A stretch of 64,000 nucleotides of DNA from Anaerolineales bacterium (GTDB lineage: Bacteria > Chloroflexota > Anaerolineae > Anaerolineales > E44-bin32), in the NCBI GenBank assembly GCA_049644665.1, contig JBARSI010000155.1:4888-68887 (forward strand). Direction: 5' to 3'. The first letter of the stretch is position 1. The number at the start of each line of letters is the position of its first letter. Under the pieces are notes generated by a model. That model ran no database searches and was not told the DNA's origin. It worked only from the letters and a program-made list of their open reading frames with translations. Position numbers and translations under genes: made by a program. Below, piece after piece: positions 36,408 to 54,303 of the stretch.

Positions 36408-37157
36408 ATGGAAGCATCCCTATTAAATGCCTTCTGGGCGGCAGTGATCACCACGTTGGCGACGGGGCTTGGCGGGTTGCCCTTCGTCTTTATGCGCCGT
36501 TTTCCTGCCCGGCTTGCTCACTTGGCATGGGCAGTCGCCGGCGGGATGATGCTTGCGGCGTCTGTTTTTAACCTGATCTTCCCCGGGATCGAGGATGGTG
36601 GATTCAACATCGTAGCCGTCGGCATGCTCGCTGGAGCCCTGATCTTCGGCCTGGCCTCGCGGCGGATAGCGCACCACGATTTTACAATAAGCGGGGTGAG
36701 CGGCGCGGGAGGGAATCGCATCGCTCTGGTTCTTGGGACAATGTTCTTCCACAGCTTTCCCGAAGGCCTGGCGGTAGGCGTAGCTTTCGGATCGGGGGAA
36801 ACCCACCTGGGCATAATCATCACTATCGCCATCGCAATTCACAACATACCCGAGGGAATTGCGGTCTCACTGCCGCTGCGCGCCGAGGGGGTCAGCGGCT
36901 GGAAGTGTGTCGGCTGGTCAATATTCTCGAGCTTGCCTCAGCCGATAGCGGTGATTCCAGCCTACCTGGCCGTGGTTGCATTTCGACCGATTCTTCCCTT
37001 CGCCTTTGGTTTCGCAGCCGGGGCGATGTTCTTTCTCGTCCTCAGCGAGATGATCCCGGAGAGCCTGGCCAGCGATGTGCAGCGGCAAACGAGCGCGCTG
37101 GCAGCAATGGGCGGATTCATCGCCATGATGCTCTTTCAGAACGTATTCATTATGTGA
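36408..37157 (+). CDS. zupT: ZIP-family divalent metal transporter (ZupT-like)
   Basis: Contains HSFPEGLAVG and HNIPEGIAV, with 8 helices. Starts 1 nt after the regulator's stop. Confidence 0.85.
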   Translation: MEASLLNAFWAAVITTLATGLGGLPFVFMRRFPARLAHLAWAVAGGMMLAASVFNLIFPGIEDGGFNIVAVGMLAGALIFGLASRRIAHHDFTISGVSGAGGNRIALVLGTMFFHSFPEGLAVGVAFGSGETHLGIIITIAIAIHNIPEGIAVSLPLRAEGVSGWKCVGWSIFSSLPQPIAVIPAYLAVVAFRPILPFAFGFAAGAMFFLVLSEMIPESLASDVQRQTSALAAMGGFIAMMLFQNVFIM

Positions 37158-37170
37158 TCCTGTCCTCCTC

Positions 37171-37200
37171 TTGTAATTTAGTTTCAACTAATATTATAAT
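37171..37200 (+). promoter_or_regulatory. Sigma-70-type promoter (TTGTAA-N18-TATAAT) with the inverted repeat TTAGTT-tc-AACTAA in the spacer
   Basis: The repeat sits at ~37178-37191, between the -35 (37171-76) and the -10 (37195-200). The leader to ATG 37357 is about 150 nt. Confidence 0.5.
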
Positions 37201-37356
37201 AAGGCCATACTTAATTCTCGAATTGGTTGATCCGCTTCACCATGTTGAGAATCTCCACAGGACCACCCGCGCTCAGGGCGTTAAGGGGCACGGAGGGATT
37301 CTTACAGGGGTTGGCCACGAGGCAGGGAATGTGTTCCGAAAGGAAACGAGAGCGGT

Positions 37357-38367
37357 ATGAGTGATTCGTTAATAACACTGTTAATTGGACTTGGCATGCT
37401 ATCTATCGGCCTGTGGTTTCTTTGGCCGGAGGACGGTCTTTTTGCGCGCTGGCAGCGGGGGCGAAAGATGAACGCCCGCATCCGCCGCGAGGACGCATTG
37501 AAACACATCCACAGCTGTGATATGGGCGGATCACCGGCATCGATCCAGAGCATTGCCGGCGCATTAGGAGTCCACCTCAACGAGGCGTTAGCTACACTAT
37601 CTGAGCTTGAAGCGCATAATTTGGCACTTATAAGCAACGGCGGTATCCGCTTGACGCCCGCAGGTCGTGAGTCGGCGCTGTATATTTTACGGGCACATCG
37701 CATGTGGGAGCGATACCTGGCAGATGAGACTGGATACAGCGAACAGGAATGGCATGATATCGCCGAGCGTTATGAACACGAACTGACACCCTCTGAGGTT
37801 GAAGCGCTCTCAGCGCGCTTGGGGTATCCCACACATGATCCACACGGGGACCCCATACCCGCGGCAGATGGTGAGATTGTCCATCATGGTGGTGAGCCGC
37901 TCACCGCAGCCGAGGTTGATGTCCCCCTGCGCATCGTACACCTTGAGGATGAGCCGGACGTGGTCTACGCTCAGCTCGTCGCCGAAGGGTTGCACCCAGG
38001 CATGATTCTGCGTCTCGTCGAACGAACGCCCGAGCGGCTGCGCTTCTGGGCCGGGGGTGACGAACACACCCTGGCTCCAGTGGTCGCGGCGAATATCTCT
38101 GTCTTGGCTCTTGCCATGGCGGAGGCTGAGGAACCCGTCGGCAAGCCGTTGAGCCACTTACAGTCCGGCGAATCAGCTGTTGTCCTATCGATTTCACCGG
38201 CAAGTCGTGGTCTGGATCGTCAACGGTTGCTCGACTTGGGCCTGTTGCCGGGAACCAAAGTGGGCGTCGAGTTGGTTGGTCCGGGTGGAGATCCGAAAGC
38301 CTACCGGATACGAGGAGCGCTGATCGCTCTGCGACAAGACCAGGCCAATCGCATATTGGTTGAATGA
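37357..38367 (+). CDS. DtxR-family regulator (Mn-type ligand set) with an N-terminal hydrophobic helix, an SH3-like domain and a terminal FeoA domain
   Basis: LITLLIGLGMLSIGLWFLW is followed by RWQRGRK. The ligand strings are REDALKHIH, RAHRMWERYL and WHDIAERYEHELT. C-terminal FeoA string: SGESAVVLSISPASRGLDRQRLLDLGLLPGTKVGVELVGPGGDPKAYRIRGALIALRQDQANRILV. Confidence 0.75.
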   Translation: MSDSLITLLIGLGMLSIGLWFLWPEDGLFARWQRGRKMNARIRREDALKHIHSCDMGGSPASIQSIAGALGVHLNEALATLSELEAHNLALISNGGIRLTPAGRESALYILRAHRMWERYLADETGYSEQEWHDIAERYEHELTPSEVEALSARLGYPTHDPHGDPIPAADGEIVHHGGEPLTAAEVDVPLRIVHLEDEPDVVYAQLVAEGLHPGMILRLVERTPERLRFWAGGDEHTLAPVVAANISVLALAMAEAEEPVGKPLSHLQSGESAVVLSISPASRGLDRQRLLDLGLLPGTKVGVELVGPGGDPKAYRIRGALIALRQDQANRILVE

Positions 38368-45481: not shown

Positions 45482-46471
45482 CTAAACTGATTGGGCAGGG
45501 TGTCGCCGCGAGGCGCTGAGCAGCACAGCGGCCGCGAGTACAAGCCCCCCGCCCAAGGTTTGTATTGTGGTGAGGAATTCCCCTAGAAAAACCATGGCAA
45601 GAAGAACGGTGAAGACCGGTTCGAGCGTGCTGAGAAGCGATGCGGTTGTTGGGCCGACGCGCTGCATCCCGGCTAAGAAAGCCCCCAGGGCCAGGATCGT
45701 GCTGAGAGTCACCATCCCTAAAAGGATGAGGACACCCTCGAACCCTATTTTAAAATTCAGATTATGGGAGAAGGCGCCCGCGATTGTGAAGCTGATCGCT
45801 GCACCGAGCGAAATCCATACCAGACTCCCCCAGGGTTCTGCCGGGCGTGAGTACCGATCGACACTTATGATGTAAGCGGCATACCAAATTGCGGATCCTA
45901 TCACCAAAGCTACACCGATCAAGTCAATAGACCCGCTACTGGCGTTTTGTAGAATTTGAACTGGGTTAAGGGTGAGGATCACTCCGAAAGACGCTAGTGC
46001 GAGAGCGACCCACTCTCGAACGCTCAGGGCACGGTGGTTAAGGATCCAGTTTAACAGGGCTACGAAGGCAGGGTATACGTATAACAGCATTGAACTAATG
46101 GAGGCAGAGTTTCGTTCAAGGGCGGCGAAGTAGAGTGCGGATTGCCCGGCGTAGCCGACCGCGCCGAGCAGAAGGAGAATAGCCACCTGGCGGGCATCGA
46201 AAATCAACTTGCGGCGGTGGAAGAAATACAGATACACCGCCAATAGAACAGCGGCTCCAGTGAATCGAAGACTCAAGATTGTCACAATGTTGATATCGGT
46301 GTTGAAGGCAAGCTTCCCTAATATCGAGAGACTGGCAAATCCTGCAGCGGATACGGTGCACAGGCCTGCGCCAGTGAGTCTGGATCGATCCTCGTCGCCG
46401 CCATTGCGTTGTGTCGACGCGAATAAAATAGAGGATTGGGGCGATCCGTTGGCGGAGTCAACTTGGTCCAT
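45482..46471 (-). CDS. EamA/DMT-family transporter
   Basis: Ten helices in two EamA repeats. Start moved to Met44 (46471) to avoid overlap with the divergent lipA. Confidence 0.75.
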   Translation of the reverse strand: MDQVDSANGSPQSSILFASTQRNGGDEDRSRLTGAGLCTVSAAGFASLSILGKLAFNTDINIVTILSLRFTGAAVLLAVYLYFFHRRKLIFDARQVAILLLLGAVGYAGQSALYFAALERNSASISSMLLYVYPAFVALLNWILNHRALSVREWVALALASFGVILTLNPVQILQNASSGSIDLIGVALVIGSAIWYAAYIISVDRYSRPAEPWGSLVWISLGAAISFTIAGAFSHNLNFKIGFEGVLILLGMVTLSTILALGAFLAGMQRVGPTTASLLSTLEPVFTVLLAMVFLGEFLTTIQTLGGGLVLAAAVLLSASRRHPAQSV

Positions 46472-46540
46472 GGCAATGAGTATACTTACGCTCTTTCGAT
46501 TACCAAGCGCGTGATAAAAGAACCCACCAGGGTTTCGCGG

Positions 46541-46546
46541 TAGAAT
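46541..46546 (+). promoter_or_regulatory. TAGAAT box placed 7 nt before the in-frame ATG 46554 of lipA (leaderless-type)
   Basis: The sequence reads cggTAGAATgtctttt-ATG. The track start ATG 46545 lies inside the box itself. Confidence 0.35.
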
Positions 46547-47522
46547 GTCTTTTATGCATGAGGGAACCATGAAAGATAACGAAATCAAAGGTGATATCAT
46601 ACCGATATCCAGTCAGGATCTACCGCCCCGGCGGCGACCGGAATGGATTAAGGTGAGCGCACCCTCGGGCGATGCCTACGAGCGCCTGCGAGGCATGATG
46701 CGTTCCAAGTCGTTACATACCGTTTGTGAAGAGGCCCGCTGTCCGAACATGGGGGAATGCTGGGGTTCCGGGACGGCGACGTTTTTGCTTATGGGTGACG
46801 TGTGCACGCGCTCATGCGGCTTCTGCGATATAGCCACCGGGCGCCCCGCCCCGTTAGACTGGCTCGAGCCTGAGCGAGTAGCGCGCGCCGTACAGGCGAT
46901 GGATCTACGCCACGCAGTAATTACCAGCGTAAATCGCGATGAGCGCTCCGACGGCGGCGCACCGGTTTTTGCGATGGTTATCCAGAGAATCCGTGAATTG
47001 CAGCCAGGCTGCTCCATCGAAGTTCTCATCCCGGACTTCAAAGGTTCTATCGAATCGCTGAAGATCGTTATGGATGCCCGACCTGAGATTCTCAACCACA
47101 ACGTTGAGACCGTGCCGCGGCTCTTTAAGAAAGTTCAACCGCAGGATCATTTTGAGTGGGCGCAGGCTACACTTACCAACGCTAAGAAATTAGACTCGGA
47201 GGTGCTCACGAAGTCAGGCATGATGGTTGGGTTGGGAGAGACCATGGAAGAAGTCAAGGCGGTCATGGATGACCTTTGCTCTTGGGGGGTCGACATCCTC
47301 ACCATTGGTCAGTATCTCCAACCCACGAAAGAGCATCTCCCGATCGAACGCTACTATACCCCGGAGGAGTTCGAAGAGTTCGAGCGTTACGGTAGGGATA
47401 TCGGTTTCAGGTGGGTTGAAAGCGGACCGCTGGTGCGTTCTTCTTACCACGCTGAGCAGCAGGTGCGAGCCTTGAGTGTGGTCCACCGAAAGCTATATGA
47501 GGGTGAAAAGAAAAACTCGTGA
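46545..47522 (+). CDS. lipA: Lipoyl synthase
   Basis: Contains [12 protein letters not shown] and the radical-SAM motif [10 protein letters not shown]. The likely real start is ATG 46554. Confidence 0.95.
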
Positions 47523-47601
47523 AAGCGCCCGTCACTAATTGAATGCAGAATGCACGGGCGGCAGAAGGCCAGGCTTCAAGTAAGTCTCACGGAGTCCGAC
47601 G

Positions 47602-48228
47602 ATGATTGAACTGAGGGTTTTATCCGTTGGCGAATACCAGACGAACTGCTATCTACTCGTTGACACCGAATCGTATGAAGGAGTACTAATCGACCCCGGA
47701 GATGAAGCGCAGGAGATTCTCGATTGGTTAGGAAACACAAGCATTACCAGCATCTTGCTTACCCACGGACATCCGGATCACGTTGGGGCGCTTCAGACGG
47801 TAAGGCAGTCATTGGGGGTCAAAGTGGGGATCCACCCAGCCGATGCTGACACTTTTTCCATACCGGCTGATTTTAAATTATCAAAAGGCGATGTTTTCGG
47901 GTTGGGGGACGCTCACATCGAGGTTGTTCATGTTCCCGGCCATACACCCGGAAGTGTCGCTTTAAAGCTCATCGAAGCTGATGGATTCCAACATGCCCTG
48001 TCCGGGGATGCGATTTTCCCCGGAGGGCCAGGACATACGAAGACCCCTGAGGCGCTGGCGACAGCGCTCGAATCATTGACCCGCACGGTCTTCACCTGGT
48101 CTGATTCGGTTCGATTGCACCCAGGGCATGGGGAGTCGACGACAGTGGGAGCAGAACGCGCAGCCTTCGAAGCCTTCCGGGACAAATTGCTCCCGCCCGA
48201 TCTCTGCGGCGATGTTGCCTGGGGTTGA
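47602..48228 (+). CDS. MBL-fold metallo-hydrolase (glyoxalase II-like)
   Basis: Contains the THGHPDHVG motif. Confidence 0.8.
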   Translation: MIELRVLSVGEYQTNCYLLVDTESYEGVLIDPGDEAQEILDWLGNTSITSILLTHGHPDHVGALQTVRQSLGVKVGIHPADADTFSIPADFKLSKGDVFGLGDAHIEVVHVPGHTPGSVALKLIEADGFQHALSGDAIFPGGPGHTKTPEALATALESLTRTVFTWSDSVRLHPGHGESTTVGAERAAFEAFRDKLLPPDLCGDVAWG

Positions 48229-48447
48229 TGAATATCGGGACGCAAGGGGAGCGGATGGATAACGTATGAAAAAGCCCGGTTTGATTGGGTTAGGATTTAT
48301 ACGACATTCTTCTGATGAGTACAATCAAAGGTCAGGCACGAACAATCTTACAGCCATCCCATGGTGGCACCCCTGCTCCAGGGTTTGCAAATCCAACCCC
48401 ACTTAATGAAGTGGACCGTAGCTGAAATAGCCGCCATGTGAGGTGTA

Positions 48448-48864
48448 ATGGGCGAATACCGTTTTTTTCATTCGATTGAGATCCGCTATGGGGATATTGA
48501 TGCACAGCGCCACGTAAACAATGCCCGCCACTTCACCTACATGGAGCAGGCGCGATCGAAGTACATCAAGGAGCTTGGTTTATGGGAGGGATCAGACTTT
48601 GACGCGATCGGGATTATCCTGGCGGAGCAGAGCTGCCGTTACATTAACCCAATCCAATTAGAGAGCGATATTAGAGTAGGGGTTCGTACCGTGCGTCTCG
48701 GGGAGAAAAGCATGGAGACTCAATACTCAATACAGGATGCTCAAACAGGAGAAGAACTGGCTGTTGGGCAGGCAATATTGGTTGCATATGATTACCAACT
48801 GGGGAAATCCATCCCCATTCCAGATGACTGGCGGGTCGTCATCACATCTTTTGAAGGTATGTAA
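48448..48864 (+). CDS. Hotdog-fold acyl-CoA thioesterase (YbgC/4HBT-like)
   Basis: 138 aa. N-terminal IEIRYGDIDAQRHVNNARHF is typical of 4HBT thioesterases. Confidence 0.75.
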   Translation: MGEYRFFHSIEIRYGDIDAQRHVNNARHFTYMEQARSKYIKELGLWEGSDFDAIGIILAEQSCRYINPIQLESDIRVGVRTVRLGEKSMETQYSIQDAQTGEELAVGQAILVAYDYQLGKSIPIPDDWRVVITSFEGM

Positions 48865-48986
48865 AATTCCAGTCAGAAGGAATACGCGAGGTTTCGCGAC
48901 GCTATAGTCGGACGGTTTCGCTTTATCAAGTTACATTACCCGCGATACCATCTCGATCGATGCGGGATTATGAGAGGAATCGAAAA

Positions 48987-49991
48987 ATGCATTTAGATGT
49001 GTCGCTTCCCCCGGTGTCACTTAAGGATGTCCCGGCTATAGCCGCGGCGGTTGAGGGGATGCGCTTTGATGGTCTCTGGTCAGCAGAGACCCAGCATGAC
49101 CCTTTTCTCCCCTTGGCTCTGGTTGCAGAGCACACGAGCGAGATTCGTTTTGGTACCGCGGTGGCGATCGCGTTCGCTCGCAGCCCGGCGAATGTTGCCC
49201 ATACGGCATGGGATTTAGCGGCCGCATCGCAAGGGCGATTTATCTTGGGGTTGGGGACGCAAGTCAAACCGCATATTGAGCGGCGCTTTGGGATGACCTG
49301 GCCCGATTCACCCGTAGGTAAACTGCGCGAGTTCGTTATGGCCGTGCGCGCATTCTGGTCAGCGTGGCAAAAGGACGAAAGACTGAATTATCGGGGTGAT
49401 TATTACAAACTCACATTGATGACGCCTTTCTTTAACCCCGGACCGATTAGTCACCCTGAAATACCGATCTATTTGGCAGGGGTGAATCCCGGGATGTGTC
49501 GATTGACGGGAGAAGTGGCCGATGGTTTCCATGTCCACCCACTGCACACGGAGCGCTATCTGCGCGAAGTTATCCGGCCCGCGATCGCGGAAGGCGCCAA
49601 GCGAGCTGGACGAGATGAAAGCAAAATCGAGCTTTCAACCTCCACATTTATCGTGACGAACGCACAGCAGAATGCGTTTGTGCGTTCGCAAATCGCATTT
49701 TACGCATCCACACCATCCTATCGCCGAGTGATGTCGCTCCATGGGTGGAATGACACTGCCGAAGAACTTTCTTCCCTGGCTCGACAGGGAGAGTGGGAGG
49801 CGATGCCAGATTTGGTGGATGATGAAATGTTGGCGACCTTCGCAGTGGTTGAGAAGTCCGATGCGCTGGCAGGCGCGATCAAAAAGCGCTATGAGGGGCT
49901 GGTGGACAGGATCACGCCATATAGGGCGTTTCTCCCCGGCGATGACGATGAGTTCTGGCGCGTCCTCGTTGATGCCTGGAGGCGAAACTGA
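48987..49991 (+). CDS. Luciferase-like (LLM class), probably F420-dependent, oxidoreductase
   Basis: LLM fold strings FDGLWSAETQHDPF and RFILGLGTQVKPH. SD GAGAGGAA lies before ATG 48987. Confidence 0.7.
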   Translation: MHLDVSLPPVSLKDVPAIAAAVEGMRFDGLWSAETQHDPFLPLALVAEHTSEIRFGTAVAIAFARSPANVAHTAWDLAAASQGRFILGLGTQVKPHIERRFGMTWPDSPVGKLREFVMAVRAFWSAWQKDERLNYRGDYYKLTLMTPFFNPGPISHPEIPIYLAGVNPGMCRLTGEVADGFHVHPLHTERYLREVIRPAIAEGAKRAGRDESKIELSTSTFIVTNAQQNAFVRSQIAFYASTPSYRRVMSLHGWNDTAEELSSLARQGEWEAMPDLVDDEMLATFAVVEKSDALAGAIKKRYEGLVDRITPYRAFLPGDDDEFWRVLVDAWRRN

Positions 49992-51073
49992 TCATCGTAG
50001 ATGGCCATGAAGATCTGGCGTGGAACGCGCTCACTTTCGATCGTGATTACACACGTTCCGCTCTTGAGACACGGGCGAAGGAAGAGGGGACATCCATACC
50101 AGAGTGGAACGGTGACACGCTGCTTGGTTGGCCGGAGTGGGTACGGGGCGGCGTAGCGGTCGTATTCGCTACGCTCTTCTCTGCGCCACTTAGATGGAAG
50201 AAAGAGTCCTGGGATGTTAGATGTTACGCTGATGCCGAGGAGGCGCATTCGCTCTACCGCTCCGATCTGGCGTATTACCATCAACTGGTAGACGAACATT
50301 CCGAGAAGTTCCGTTTAATCCTCGACAAACACGACCTTGGAATCACAGAGTCGATCTGGCAGAAGGCGGAGGATGAGCAAAGCGTGGGTATGGTTTTGCT
50401 CATGGAAGGTGCGGATGGCGTTCGGTCACCGGAAGAACTGCAAGAGTGGTTCGATGGGGGCGTTAGGATTCTGGGCCCTGCTTGGGCCGCCACGCGATAC
50501 GCTGGGGGGACTGGAGAACCGGGTCCTCTAACGAATCTCGGCCGCGAGCTGCTGGACGTCATGGCCGAGGTTGGAATGGTCCTGGATTTATCGCATCTGG
50601 CCGAAGAGGGGGCTGTAGAAGCGCTGGATCGTTTCCAAGGATCGATCCTGGTCTCACATACAAGCCCGCTCACCCTTGTGCCCAATGCGGAGAAACCCGA
50701 ACGGCACATCACCGACCTCGTTATCCGACTAACCGCCGAACGGGACGGGGTGATTGGTTTAGTGCTGGGGAATCGCTTCTTGAAAGATGGGTGGGAGCCT
50801 TCGCAAGGTAGAGCTATCGTAACACTTGCGGACGTTGCTATGGGGATCGATTATATTTGCCAGATGCTGGGAAATGCTATGCACGTTGGCTTAGGAAGTG
50901 ATTTTGATGGAGGTTTTGGCTTGGACAAAGTCCCGCAGGGGCTTGACAGTGTCGCTGACTTGCGGTTAATTGGCGAGTCGCTTGACGCACGCGGCTATAA
51001 TCAAAAAGATATCGAAGGAATACTTGGGGAAAACTGGCTGCGATTTTTACATAGAGCATTACCGGAGAGCTAA
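49988..51073 (+). CDS. M19-family (renal-type) dipeptidase. The start codon is non-canonical or undefined.
   Basis: The frame is open from 49973. Translation LIIVDGHEDLAWN.. carries the N-terminal HxD zinc motif and continues without a stop into the track ORF 50384..51073 (LLMEGADG, VSHTSP, GLGSDFDGG). Confidence 0.7.
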   Translation: MIIVDGHEDLAWNALTFDRDYTRSALETRAKEEGTSIPEWNGDTLLGWPEWVRGGVAVVFATLFSAPLRWKKESWDVRCYADAEEAHSLYRSDLAYYHQLVDEHSEKFRLILDKHDLGITESIWQKAEDEQSVGMVLLMEGADGVRSPEELQEWFDGGVRILGPAWAATRYAGGTGEPGPLTNLGRELLDVMAEVGMVLDLSHLAEEGAVEALDRFQGSILVSHTSPLTLVPNAEKPERHITDLVIRLTAERDGVIGLVLGNRFLKDGWEPSQGRAIVTLADVAMGIDYICQMLGNAMHVGLGSDFDGGFGLDKVPQGLDSVADLRLIGESLDARGYNQKDIEGILGENWLRFLHRALPES

Positions 51074-51078
51074 CTTTT

Positions 51079-51543
51079 ATGCCCGCACTCACTCGATTGC
51101 AGACACGTCTTGCGCGACTCTGGATGACGGTAATGTTCATCGGCCTCCTGATCTTTATGGTCGGCATACAACCCGATCTCATCGGAATGAACCGCAGCGT
51201 TGCTGTTGGCTTTGTCCAGATCGGTGTCTGGCTGACGGGGCTGGCGATTCTGCTCGTGGCGGCTTATTCAACTGTGCGGATGGTACGCAACGGCAAACCC
51301 ACCTCTTTACGAGCTGACATTGGAATCAGGCTAATCGCGACAGGCTACGTCGTCGCTGCGGTCGGGTCGCTGGCCGACTTCATCGGTGTGGGCTCTCATC
51401 GAATGCCCGCGGTCTACTTTGGACCTATTCAGTTGATTGGGTTGGTATCGGGTGTGTTTCTCAGCCTGCTCGGTGTGATCCTCTATATGCCCTGGACAAA
51501 GAAATTAGAGACTGAAGAAAGTGTGCCAGAACCAGACGAATAG
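51079..51543 (+). CDS. Small integral membrane protein (4 helices), hypothetical
   Basis: 154-aa hydrophobic ORF that starts 5 nt after the dipeptidase stop. Confidence 0.55.
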   Translation: MPALTRLQTRLARLWMTVMFIGLLIFMVGIQPDLIGMNRSVAVGFVQIGVWLTGLAILLVAAYSTVRMVRNGKPTSLRADIGIRLIATGYVVAAVGSLADFIGVGSHRMPAVYFGPIQLIGLVSGVFLSLLGVILYMPWTKKLETEESVPEPDE

Positions 51544-51730
51544 ACTCCAAATCAAGGGAGCGAATGGCTCCATTGCCCCCCACCGGTTGTAAAAGCGCGT
51601 CCAACATTGGCTAGGAATCGGCCTTTCAACAAGGCCGGTTTCGGTTAAAGGCTTCAATAAGAGCTGAGGGCGCCGGGTCATTGGGGAGATAAGCGGGGAA
51701 TCGACTTGTCTGGGTATTTGAGAGTTTGTG

Positions 51731-52783
51731 CTACTCAGTCATTTTCTCGCTGGAGTGACCGGGGAAGACTTTTCCATCAGGCTTGATCGCGGCATAGGCA
51801 TAGTTGACCGCTACGGTGACCTGGCCGTAGCCAACGACGATTAAATTGAGCGGATCGAGATCCTCTTGTAGAGCGACGTCGCCAGCAGCGTATACTCCCG
51901 GGAGATTAGTTTCCATCTTACTATTGACTTTAATGTAGCGGCGGCCGATTGTTTCCAGCCCCCACTCACGAATAGGTCCGAGGTCGGCTTTGAATCCAAG
52001 AGCCAGGATGCCGGCATCGACATCGATTGTTGTTTCGTTGTCTGTACGATTGTCGAAAAGCACAGCGCGTTCAAGGCGTTCGTCACCCTGAAACTCGCGC
52101 AATTCATAGAAGACACGGGTATCGACGGACGATTCCATCAAGGCATTCACGGAAGTATCGTGTGCGCGAAAACCCTCGCGACGATGAATCAAGGTCACAC
52201 GCTCGGCAACCGGCTCAAGCGCTAACGACCAGTCCACAGCGCTGTCGCCGCCTCCCACGATGAGTACGCGCATCCCGGCAAAGTCGTTGATATCCTTGAC
52301 CCAATAATACACACCCTTATCTTCAAAGCGCGTAATACTCTCGTTATTAAGTTTGGTTGGACGGAAGGCGCCAATACCTGCGGCGATCACGACAGTGCGA
52401 GAGTAGTGGATGCCCTTGTCAGTCTCGAGGATCCAGCACTCCTGCCCATAATCATCTCCAGGGAATGGTGCGAGCGTGAGCTTTATGGCTCTTTCTTCAA
52501 GCGCCATAGTCGGCTTCCACTGAGAGGCTTGCTCGGTCAGGCACGAGGCAAGCTCCTTCGAAAGAATCTCAGGAAAACCTGGAGTGTCGAATATCATCTT
52601 ATCGGGATATAGCGCGATCAACTGACCGCCGGGTTGCGGTAGAGCATCGATGACCTTGACCTTCATCTCGCGCAGACCGGCGTAGAAAGCCCCAAAGAGT
52701 CCCGTAGGACCGGCGCCGACAAATGTGATATCAAATAATTCAGCTATATTCTTGGGACTCATCATTTTTGGAGAATCCTCCAT
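51731..52783 (-). CDS. Thioredoxin-reductase-like ferredoxin-NADP+ reductase (YumC type)
   Basis: Contains DITFVGAGPTGLFGAFYAG, PGGQL and the second Rossmann motif VGGGDSAVDW. Confidence 0.8.
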   Translation of the reverse strand: MEDSPKMMSPKNIAELFDITFVGAGPTGLFGAFYAGLREMKVKVIDALPQPGGQLIALYPDKMIFDTPGFPEILSKELASCLTEQASQWKPTMALEERAIKLTLAPFPGDDYGQECWILETDKGIHYSRTVVIAAGIGAFRPTKLNNESITRFEDKGVYYWVKDINDFAGMRVLIVGGGDSAVDWSLALEPVAERVTLIHRREGFRAHDTSVNALMESSVDTRVFYELREFQGDERLERAVLFDNRTDNETTIDVDAGILALGFKADLGPIREWGLETIGRRYIKVNSKMETNLPGVYAAGDVALQEDLDPLNLIVVGYGQVTVAVNYAYAAIKPDGKVFPGHSSEKMTE

Positions 52784-52900
52784 ACTGCGCAGACTGACAA
52801 AAGCAGATTATAAAGGCACTAAAGAAGGAGCCTCAATTGGAAATGCGGCCAGGTTCATGGGAATTGCCCCCTCCTAGGTGATTGTTCTAAGCGCCGGCAG

Positions 52901-53689
52901 TTAAGTGCCGGCCAGGAAAAATATCACCACTAAAGCAAGAGCTGACAGAAACCCGGAGGCCGCGAAGAAAAGCACTCGGGTTGCACTCCATGGCCGCCGA
53001 TCCACCAATCGGCCATCGTCCACCGACGCCCAGGTAACCTCATAGCGGGGTCCAAGGAACAAAGTGAGGGCAGCGCCAGCCAGCAAACCGCCCAGATGAC
53101 CCCAATTGTCAATTCCATCCACAACAAGACCGAAGCCCAAATTTAAAAGAGCCACAAAAACGATTTGGCGTAATTGTTGACGGCCAAAACGACCGAACAG
53201 ATCACGGTGAAGGTACAAGAAAGCTCCCAACGATCCAAGTAGTCCGAAGATTGCCCCGGAAGCGCCGGCCGAGCGGTATGGGCTGAAAGCCAGGCTTAGA
53301 ACAACTCCCGCGATTCCGCAAAGCAAGTAGACAGCAACAAAACGAGCTGTGCCGAAGAAGCGTTCCACGGCTGGGCCTATTGCGTAGAGCGAGTACATAT
53401 TGATAAAGACGTGAGGAATTGAGAGGTGCAGGAAAACCGGGGTAACGAAACGCCAGATTTCACCAGCCAGGATTTCGGGACGGGATTTTGCCCCCAACTC
53501 TAACAACCAATCGATTTGAAAAAACTCTATCGAAAGGAATTGCCCCATAAAAAAGGCTAGCGTGATCGCGATTAAGCTATAAGTGCCAGGGAATTGTTTG
53601 AAACCAGGGCGTGATTTTGTGGGTTGTGCATCAGGCCTAGCGGGAGGGAGAGACATGGTGGGATCCTGCGGCGGAATTCCTTGTGTCAC
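52901..53689 (-). CDS. Rhomboid-family intramembrane serine protease
   Basis: Contains GASGAIFGLLG (catalytic Ser) and the downstream His in WGHLGG. Confidence 0.85.
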   Translation of the reverse strand: MTQGIPPQDPTMSLPPARPDAQPTKSRPGFKQFPGTYSLIAITLAFFMGQFLSIEFFQIDWLLELGAKSRPEILAGEIWRFVTPVFLHLSIPHVFINMYSLYAIGPAVERFFGTARFVAVYLLCGIAGVVLSLAFSPYRSAGASGAIFGLLGSLGAFLYLHRDLFGRFGRQQLRQIVFVALLNLGFGLVVDGIDNWGHLGGLLAGAALTLFLGPRYEVTWASVDDGRLVDRRPWSATRVLFFAASGFLSALALVVIFFLAGT

Positions 53690-54303
53690 AGGCGCACTTG
53701 CCTCGGGTTCGAACGGCGGTGTTCGGACTCGATGATTGCTGCAATTGCTCCTACCGTTTCGTCGAGATGTCCATCGGCGTTAACTACGTAGTAGTCGAAG
53801 AGATCTACCTTATATAATTCCTCGCGCGCGGTATCGATCCGCAGCTGAAGCATCTCCTCGGATTCCGTTCGGCGCGCCTTCAAGCGTGCGATGAGCTCCT
53901 CCTCCGTCTGCGTCGAAAGAAATATCAACAATGCCTCGGGATAGAGTTGGCGGATAGTTTCAGCGCCTTGCACGTCGAGGCGCATGACGACATCCCGACC
54001 GCTGGCGAAAGCATCCCGCACTTGCTGCCTGGGGATCCCTTTATGCTCATTATAGACAAGCGCATGTTCAAGCAGCTCGTCCCGTTCGATCATCTCGAGA
54101 AACTCATCCGGGGAGACAAAGAAATAATCGACTCCCTCAACTTCACCCTCCCTCTTCGGTCGCGATGTTGCTGTGACCACGAAGTGAAAAGGTAGTTGGA
54201 GCTCCTTCATGCGCTGAAGGACAGTGTCCTTCCCAACGCCTGAGGGCCCGGAAATTACGACGAGCAGAGGTTGCTGTTGTTTATTGATGAACTCACGGTA
54301 CAT
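53686..54303 (-). CDS. gmk: Guanylate kinase
   Basis: P-loop ISGPSGVGKDT and GMP-binding motifs are present. Confidence 0.9.
   Translation of the reverse strand: MYREFINKQQQPLLVVISGPSGVGKDTVLQRMKELQLPFHFVVTATSRPKREGEVEGVDYFFVSPDEFLEMIERDELLEHALVYNEHKGIPRQQVRDAFASGRDVVMRLDVQGAETIRQLYPEALLIFLSTQTEEELIARLKARRTESEEMLQLRIDTAREELYKVDLFDYYVVNADGHLDETVGAIAAIIESEHRRSNPRQVRL

Follow-up and report, generated by a model that had tools for sequence, protein, structure and literature searches.

Near-cognate start codons (CUG, AUU, AUC and AUA under translation table 11) are a known rarity in bacteria, exemplified by the AUU codons of infC and pcnB in Escherichia coli. The weak codon of infC is conserved and serves the autoregulation of initiation factor IF3. 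In PMC3592434, the infC AUU is treated only as a special case. A second related system is termination-reinitiation at four-nucleotide overlaps of the ATGA type, where co-directional genes have stop and start codons that share three bases (NTGA) and the Shine-Dalgarno (SD) site is embedded in the upstream gene (Huber et al. 2019, PMC6728339). A third is the evolutionary turnover of start codons, in which AUG, GUG and UUG replace one another at orthologous starts, weaker codons tend to be paired with stronger or more conserved SD sites, and four very rare switches to CUG have been recorded (Belinky, Rogozin and Koonin 2017, PMC5622118). Here, we describe a locus related to all three: a peptidase family M19 dipeptidase gene of an Anaerolineales bacterium, located on the forward strand of a 64,000-nucleotide stretch of contig JBARSI010000155.1 (hereafter, the window), in which the start position defined by homology is occupied by the codon CTG at position 49988.

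Like the infC and pcnB starts, this position is one base away from AUG, is preceded by a good SD site and is expected to give low output. It differs from them in that the CTG is limited to one species-level lineage, every relative having a canonical codon, and in that the CTG is a candidate start. The junction with the upstream gene has the same architecture as the ATGA-type overlaps, although the cases tested in that work had canonical start codons and here the codon is CTG. In comparison with the recorded start-codon switches, the site is distinguished by the presence of all four NUG codons among its orthologues and by the fact that its first base doubles as the wobble base in the codon that ends the upstream gene. 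As a start-codon situation, the case adds one more example to the known but rare near-cognate starts of bacteria, at a junction whose type, the NTGA overlap, is familiar as well. What makes it a little unusual is the combination of four NUG codons at one coupled site, a C found in two haplotypes, and a different wrong start in every automatic annotation. The locus offers a clean natural test case of whether CUG can start translation once ribosomes are brought to it by a strong SD site together with a stop/start overlap, and a specialist would be surprised only if CUG proved efficient here.

The reading frame of the dipeptidase is bounded upstream by a TGA at 49970-49972 and is open from 49973 to a stop codon ending at 51073. 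Its first canonical in-frame start is the GTG at 50384-50386, followed by the ATG at 50390; the GTG is the start given in the track of open reading frames (ORFs), and the resulting product of 229 amino acids (aa) would be without about a third of the fold. The 411 nucleotides (nt) ahead of this first canonical start represent the longest such stretch among the 59 long ORFs in the window. Ahead of the codons for the N-terminal HxD metal-binding motif, the only near-cognate starts of table 11 are CTG 49976, CTG 49988, ATC 49991 and ATC 49994, and more in-frame CTG, ATA and ATC codons follow further downstream (50015, 50096, 50120 and others). An SD site, GGAGG, is located at 49978-49982 on the same strand, within the 3' end of the upstream gene, where it forms part of the codons TGG AGG; a 5-nt spacer separates it from the CTG at 49988-49990, which overlaps the upstream stop codon as CTGA (49988-49991). 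The upstream gene (48987-49991, forward strand) encodes a luciferase-like (LLM) oxidoreductase (Pfam Bac_luciferase, E = 3.7e-67) in the 334-aa form called in relatives. Its ORF is also open from ATG 48960 and its stop is the TGA at 49989-49991; in the DNA of relatives, the orthologues are likewise of 334 aa and directly upstream of the dipeptidase. The first-pass annotation of this DNA, made from the letters alone, had reported the frame open from 49973, the near-cognate codons, the GGAGG and the CTGA overlap, and all of these coordinates hold on re-reading the sequence.

Counted from 49988, the full-length coding sequence (49988-51073, forward strand) comprises 361 codons and a stop, and its product is 93-95% identical to full-length homologues of 361-362 aa. 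This product matches the Pfam family Peptidase_M19 (PF01244) with 168.5 bits against a gathering cut-off of 26 (E = 2.6e-49), residues 2-355 covering profile positions 7-318 of 319. The HxD motif corresponds to His7-Glu8-Asp9 (codons at 50006-50014, forward strand), identified from the translation and the alignment of homologues, within the sequence DGHED at residues 5-9; DGHED or DAHED is found in almost all homologues read, and P0008, P0012 and P0016 differ in the middle residue only. Further downstream, LMEGAD aligns with MEGAE of the solved structure 3ly0 and GSDFDG is conserved, with only part of the metal ligands mapped. The full-length domain, the N-terminal HxD, and the MEGA and GSDFDG motifs are those of the membrane or renal dipeptidases (PDB 3ly0, 3fdg, 3id7 and 1itq), although the sequence alignment of these structures to the window protein spans the C-terminal two thirds only. 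Judged by score, coverage and the HxD motif, the protein is a member of peptidase family M19, and dipeptidase activity is predicted. The 132 residues that the first-pass annotation had added to the ORF-track product, including what it called the zinc motif, are genuine coding sequence, since PF01244 covers them from residue 2 and homologues align from residue 1.

The automatic annotations of this gene place its start elsewhere. The NCBI protein (MGB2896076.1, P0121, “MAG: membrane dipeptidase [Anaerolineales bacterium]”, 352 aa) is the window protein from residue 10 on, with M replacing L; its start is the CTG at 50015-50017, nine codons downstream of the orthologous start, which drops the His and Asp of the HxD motif and indicates that NCBI found no canonical start either. 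On a second contig that carries the gene (L064, described below), the gene caller skipped to the internal ATG 50390. The HxD motif is missing from products starting at 50015, 50384 or 50390. All three automatic starts are wrong, each cutting off the HxD ligands; orthologues fix the start at 49988. A chance GGAGG (region 50368-50386) occurs within Ala-Glu-Asp-Glu codons, 11 nt upstream of GTG 50384, and its presence probably favours the choice of the truncated start by gene finders.

The position of the start was established by comparison with homologues. M19 homologues numbered in the thousands in a protein search; the 120 top-ranking ones, from which lengths were taken, are of 360-397 aa, with close homologues at about 356-367 aa, and the sequences of 17 close and more distant homologues were read. 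All 17 begin with M/V-IIVDGHEDLAWN or a near variant, and their first residue aligns with the Leu encoded by CTG 49988. At the DNA level, sequence was fetched for seven close relatives, and genome and metagenome contigs were scanned with a degenerate pattern that starts at the TG of the start codon and is therefore blind to its first base. These start-blind scans yielded 52 junctions, none of which has CTG and none of which belongs to the species of the window. Among the distinct junctions in which the dipeptidase is linked to an LLM gene (n = 26), 21 have GTG, two ATG, one TTG and two CTG; among those without this linkage (n = 23), 17 have ATG, five GTG, one TTG and none CTG. Both CTG junctions, those of the window and of L064, represent a single species-level lineage among the 49 distinct junctions. 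The LLM-linked relatives share the order thioesterase, LLM oxidoreductase, M19 dipeptidase, small membrane protein, and every one of the 26 LLM-linked junctions has the four-nucleotide NTGA overlap with the LLM stop.

The nearest relative with available DNA (L001/L002, 93.6% amino-acid identity) starts with TTG; its junction reads TGGCGGCGAAATTGATC where the window has TGGAGGCGAAACTGATC, and its start region AAATTGATC where the window has AAACTGATC. This one orthologous, coupled position is consequently seen with every NUG codon (ATG, GTG, TTG and CTG). The base that opens the dipeptidase start also serves as the wobble base of the last LLM codon, which specifies Asn (AAY) in the window and the L001 lineage, so only T or C keeps the upstream protein unchanged, giving TTG or CTG. 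This illustrates how overlapping genes constrain each other: the terminal Asn codon of one gene allows only two bases to begin the start codon of the next. The comparison of orthologous junctions, which the first-pass annotation had put forward, thus identifies 49988 as the start position across relatives, with CTG in the window and L064 only. It bears out the suggestion that an ATGA-type coupling junction would be expected at this place and, of the alternatives offered there, demonstrates a start-codon mutation, since the orthologues all have ATG, GTG or TTG exactly at the position of 49988. Another of these alternatives, a base-call error, did not stand, as described next.

Exact look-ups of the LLM protein (as 343 and 334 aa) and of the truncated dipeptidase (as 229 and 227 aa) gave no match, whereas those of the small proteins that flank the gene in the window led to Logan assemblies from several sequencing runs, with 99.9-100% identity to the window. 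One of them, L064, is a 2971-nt contig, assembled independently from another run (SRR28062733), that spans the junction, is 99.9% identical to the window with three mismatches (49923, 49955 and 49975) and reads GGAGGCGAAACTGATC, with the same CTG. Given these mismatches, L064 is a separate haplotype and not the same consensus, yet it carries the same C, which makes a base-call error very unlikely. The synonymous divergence from L001 is 0.22, so a genuine substitution at a wobble site is expected a priori. The C at 49988 is real and inherited, verified in two haplotypes at the assembly level. As a separate observation, the three differences between L064 and the window are all found in a 53-nt segment at the LLM gene's 3' end, shortly upstream of the SD site, and one of them replaces Ala with Asp; the cluster may represent a short tract of recombination or a place where strain variation is locally concentrated.

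The gene downstream of this codon is intact and has evolved under purifying selection. Its 361 codons are uninterrupted, and the ratio of nonsynonymous to synonymous divergence (dN/dS) relative to L001 is 0.127 for the whole gene; taken separately, codons 2-132 give 0.150 and the remaining codons 0.113. These values fall inside the span of 0.06-0.24 found for the neighbouring genes, with 0.063 for the LLM oxidoreductase, 0.122 for the small membrane protein, 0.165 for a pyridine-nucleotide oxidoreductase and 0.237 for a rhomboid protein. Besides the start, six residues are specific to the window, all at positions that vary in the family. The closest protein, P0127, is 95.0% identical and has the one-residue deletion of the window protein, with four differences in residues 2-132 and 13 in the rest; it begins with M, i.e., with a start accepted by its gene caller, which implies that the CTG arose after the split between the window and P0127. 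Across three samples no polymorphism was found inside the dipeptidase, but about 0.9 differences would be expected and the result is uninformative.

The translation signals around the start are also preserved. The GGAGG is common to most LLM-linked relatives and hence ancestral, and the GGCGG of L001 is derived. A compensatory gain of the SD site in the lineage of the window is for this reason ruled out. AGG accounts for 7% of the Arg codons in the window, yet it is kept in the SD site, which fits selection preserving that site. The second G of GGAGG lies 9 nt from the start at 49988, inside the range of 7-15 nt given for E. coli (PMC3592434). Overlaps of the ATGA or GTGA type also join about nine further real gene pairs in the window, which implies that coupling of this sort is frequent in the genome; gene pairs with a four-nucleotide overlap undergo translation by termination-reinitiation, to which the SD site contributes to a varying degree (PMC6728339; also PMC3592434 and the review PMC12548453). 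Two other CTGA junctions in the window, at 45516 on the forward strand and 20211 on the reverse strand, were rejected as spurious ORFs, antisense to or inside real genes. An unusual initiator tRNA was also considered and set aside, as there are no tRNA genes in the window. The predicted RNA structure at the junction is not unusual (z = -0.59) and lends no support to coupling through the unmasking of structure or to a frameshift stimulator.

Taking these observations together, we lean, with modest confidence, towards the interpretation that the full-length dipeptidase is still made at a low level, through initiation or reinitiation with formyl-methionine (fMet) at CUG 49988. According to this proposal, which relies on comparative sequence evidence, TTG most likely became CTG by a T-to-C transition that was silent in the overlapping last codon of the LLM gene (AAT to AAC, both Asn). 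The fMet-tRNA would pair with CUG 49988 despite a mismatch at the first codon position, the GGAGG 5 nt upstream would recruit ribosomes to this codon, and the CTGA overlap would release ribosomes that terminate on the LLM gene right at the start codon, in a process of termination-reinitiation. The lineage had probably already used the weak TTG, so that demand for the enzyme was probably low. Both the use of CUG 49988, in preference to AUC 49991, AUC 49994 or no start at all, and the tolerance of a reduced output are steps that we infer. The N-terminal tryptic peptide expected for a start at CUG 49988 is (f)M-IIVDGHEDLAWNALTFDR.

Several considerations weigh against continued translation from CUG 49988. 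CUG is a very poor initiator in E. coli, where a C:U36 mismatch at the first position makes the pairing weak and the initiation complexes unstable (PMC11497404), and it initiates at about 0.1-3% of the level of AUG, AUC belonging to the same near-cognate class (bioRxiv 10.1101/063800). In comparative data, switches of start codons to CUG number one in 2468 ancestral UUG and two in 61358 AUG, about 100-fold rarer than switches among canonical codons (PMC5622118), and this rarity suggests that such switches are usually selected against. We found no literature evidence that reinitiation relaxes the choice of start codon, and no published measurement of reinitiation at CUG. Furthermore, the recent origin of the CTG means that the absence of decay argues against an old pseudogene but has little power against a recent knockout. 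Finally, the derived nonsynonymous and synonymous changes number 13:19 on the branch of the window and 9:29 on that of L001, a ratio that is higher for the window but not significantly so (Fisher p = 0.20).

The same considerations point to the principal alternative, a young start-loss pseudogene, which we regard as possible but clearly less probable than low-level translation. Under this explanation, the T-to-C change, which is synonymous in the upstream gene and hence neutral there, put an end to useful dipeptidase translation too recently for further damage to have accumulated. The confinement of the CTG to one species-level lineage, the extreme rarity of switches to CUG, an output of at most a few percent of AUG, the accepted start in the 95% identical P0127, which marks the change as recent, and the mildly raised ratio on the window branch all speak for it. 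Set against these points, no second lesion is found in 1083 nt of either haplotype, and L066, which covers most of the gene, does not differ from the window there. The residues specific to the window spare conserved positions, the dN/dS of 0.13 resembles that of the neighbouring genes, and the SD site and the overlap are intact. Moreover, the immediate ancestor was probably already on a weak TTG, so a low level of expression seems to suffice for this gene and a further decrease may be tolerated. If the gene were a fresh knockout, the case would reduce to an ordinary event of gene loss.

A stronger version of translation from CUG 49988 can also be formulated, in which the first base of the start hardly matters at a coupled NTGA junction because ribosomes that terminate on the LLM gene are held by the GGAGG and resume translation at CUG almost as efficiently as at UUG or GUG. 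We consider this version doubtful. If it were true, a single orthologous site would accept any of the four NUG codons as a functional start, providing a natural case of termination-reinitiation that relaxes the stringency of start selection, and gene callers would systematically miss or truncate coupled genes of this kind.

Initiation at the adjacent AUC 49991 or AUC 49994, which would yield a protein one or two residues shorter with the HxD motif kept, appears unlikely. These codons fall in the same near-cognate class as CUG in E. coli, at 0.1-3% of AUG, and lie 8 and 11 nt past the GGAGG, a spacing that is still usable; however, orthology puts the start at 49988, the spacing and the stop overlap both favour that position, and the two Ile codons are present in all relatives and thus not specific to this lineage.

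The remaining explanations are highly improbable. In one, the truncated protein started at GTG 50384 or ATG 50390 is the sole product and the functional one; these are the first canonical in-frame starts, are picked by gene callers and, for the GTG, have the chance GGAGG upstream, but the product would be without 132 residues that include the HxD ligands and M19 profile positions 7 to about 120, every full-length relative shares the internal GTG/ATG and the acidic stretch, and the N-terminal third is under purifying selection (dN/dS 0.15). A sequencing or assembly error, with T, A or G as the true base at 49988, is equally remote: a single base separates the window from the TTG of its nearest relative with DNA, yet the slightly different haplotype L064, with three mismatches within 70 nt, has the same C, the NCBI protein of this metagenome-assembled genome (MAG) is likewise without a canonical start, and a synonymous divergence of 0.22 makes a substitution far likelier a priori than an error at exactly this base. 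A stop codon in the A site can promote slippage in the P site, and the last of these explanations would invoke an LLM-dipeptidase fusion of about 77 kDa, produced when tRNA-Asn on AAC slips back one base at the TGA stop (A_AAC_TGA to AAA_CTG). The dipeptidase frame is indeed -1 relative to the LLM frame, and the run of A before AAC/AAT is specific to the window and the L001 lineage; nevertheless, the site has no X_XXY_YYZ heptamer, only A_AAC_TGA, the junction has no notable RNA structure (z = -0.59), the ACG_TGA, GCG_TGA and ACA_TGA of relatives cannot slip, and no fusion protein of about 700 aa occurs among the 120 best homologues.

The surroundings of the gene are conserved as well. The gene order from about 45700 to 53800 is kept in five relatives (L003, L004, L006, L008 and L009) and comprises lipoyl synthase, an MBL-fold hydrolase, a 4HBT-type thioesterase, the LLM oxidoreductase, the M19 dipeptidase and a small membrane protein; the pyridine-nucleotide oxidoreductase, the rhomboid protein and guanylate kinase come next, on the opposite strand. 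The thioesterase gene (48448-48864, forward strand; Pfam 4HBT_2, E = 3.3e-22), which occupies the same place in these relatives, opens the conserved local order around the junction. The tight coupling of the LLM oxidoreductase and the dipeptidase suggests a shared pathway. The next gene in the order, that of the small membrane protein (51079-51543, forward strand), encodes 154 aa in the window and in four Logan assemblies, versus 165 aa in all relatives examined, where it starts 6 nt past the dipeptidase stop. The protein has a weak, sub-threshold NrsF-like Pfam match, and a T/C polymorphism at 51474 is seen in three samples.

Two further observations concern sequences beyond this gene cluster. 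The same LLM-dipeptidase junction occurs in L029 (JAIWHF010000007.1, coverage 0.44), which is labelled “MAG: Methanosarcinales archaeon”; its dipeptidase is 88% identical to that of the window and clusters with Anaerolineales sequences, and the contig is probably a binning contaminant in an archaeal MAG. Within the window, the ORF at 36572-37360 on the forward strand has the second-longest stretch free of canonical starts, with 333 nt before its first GTG. This 262-aa frame has no Pfam match and could be another gene with a missed non-canonical start, or non-coding sequence upstream of the DtxR/FeoA-type regulator gene at 37357.

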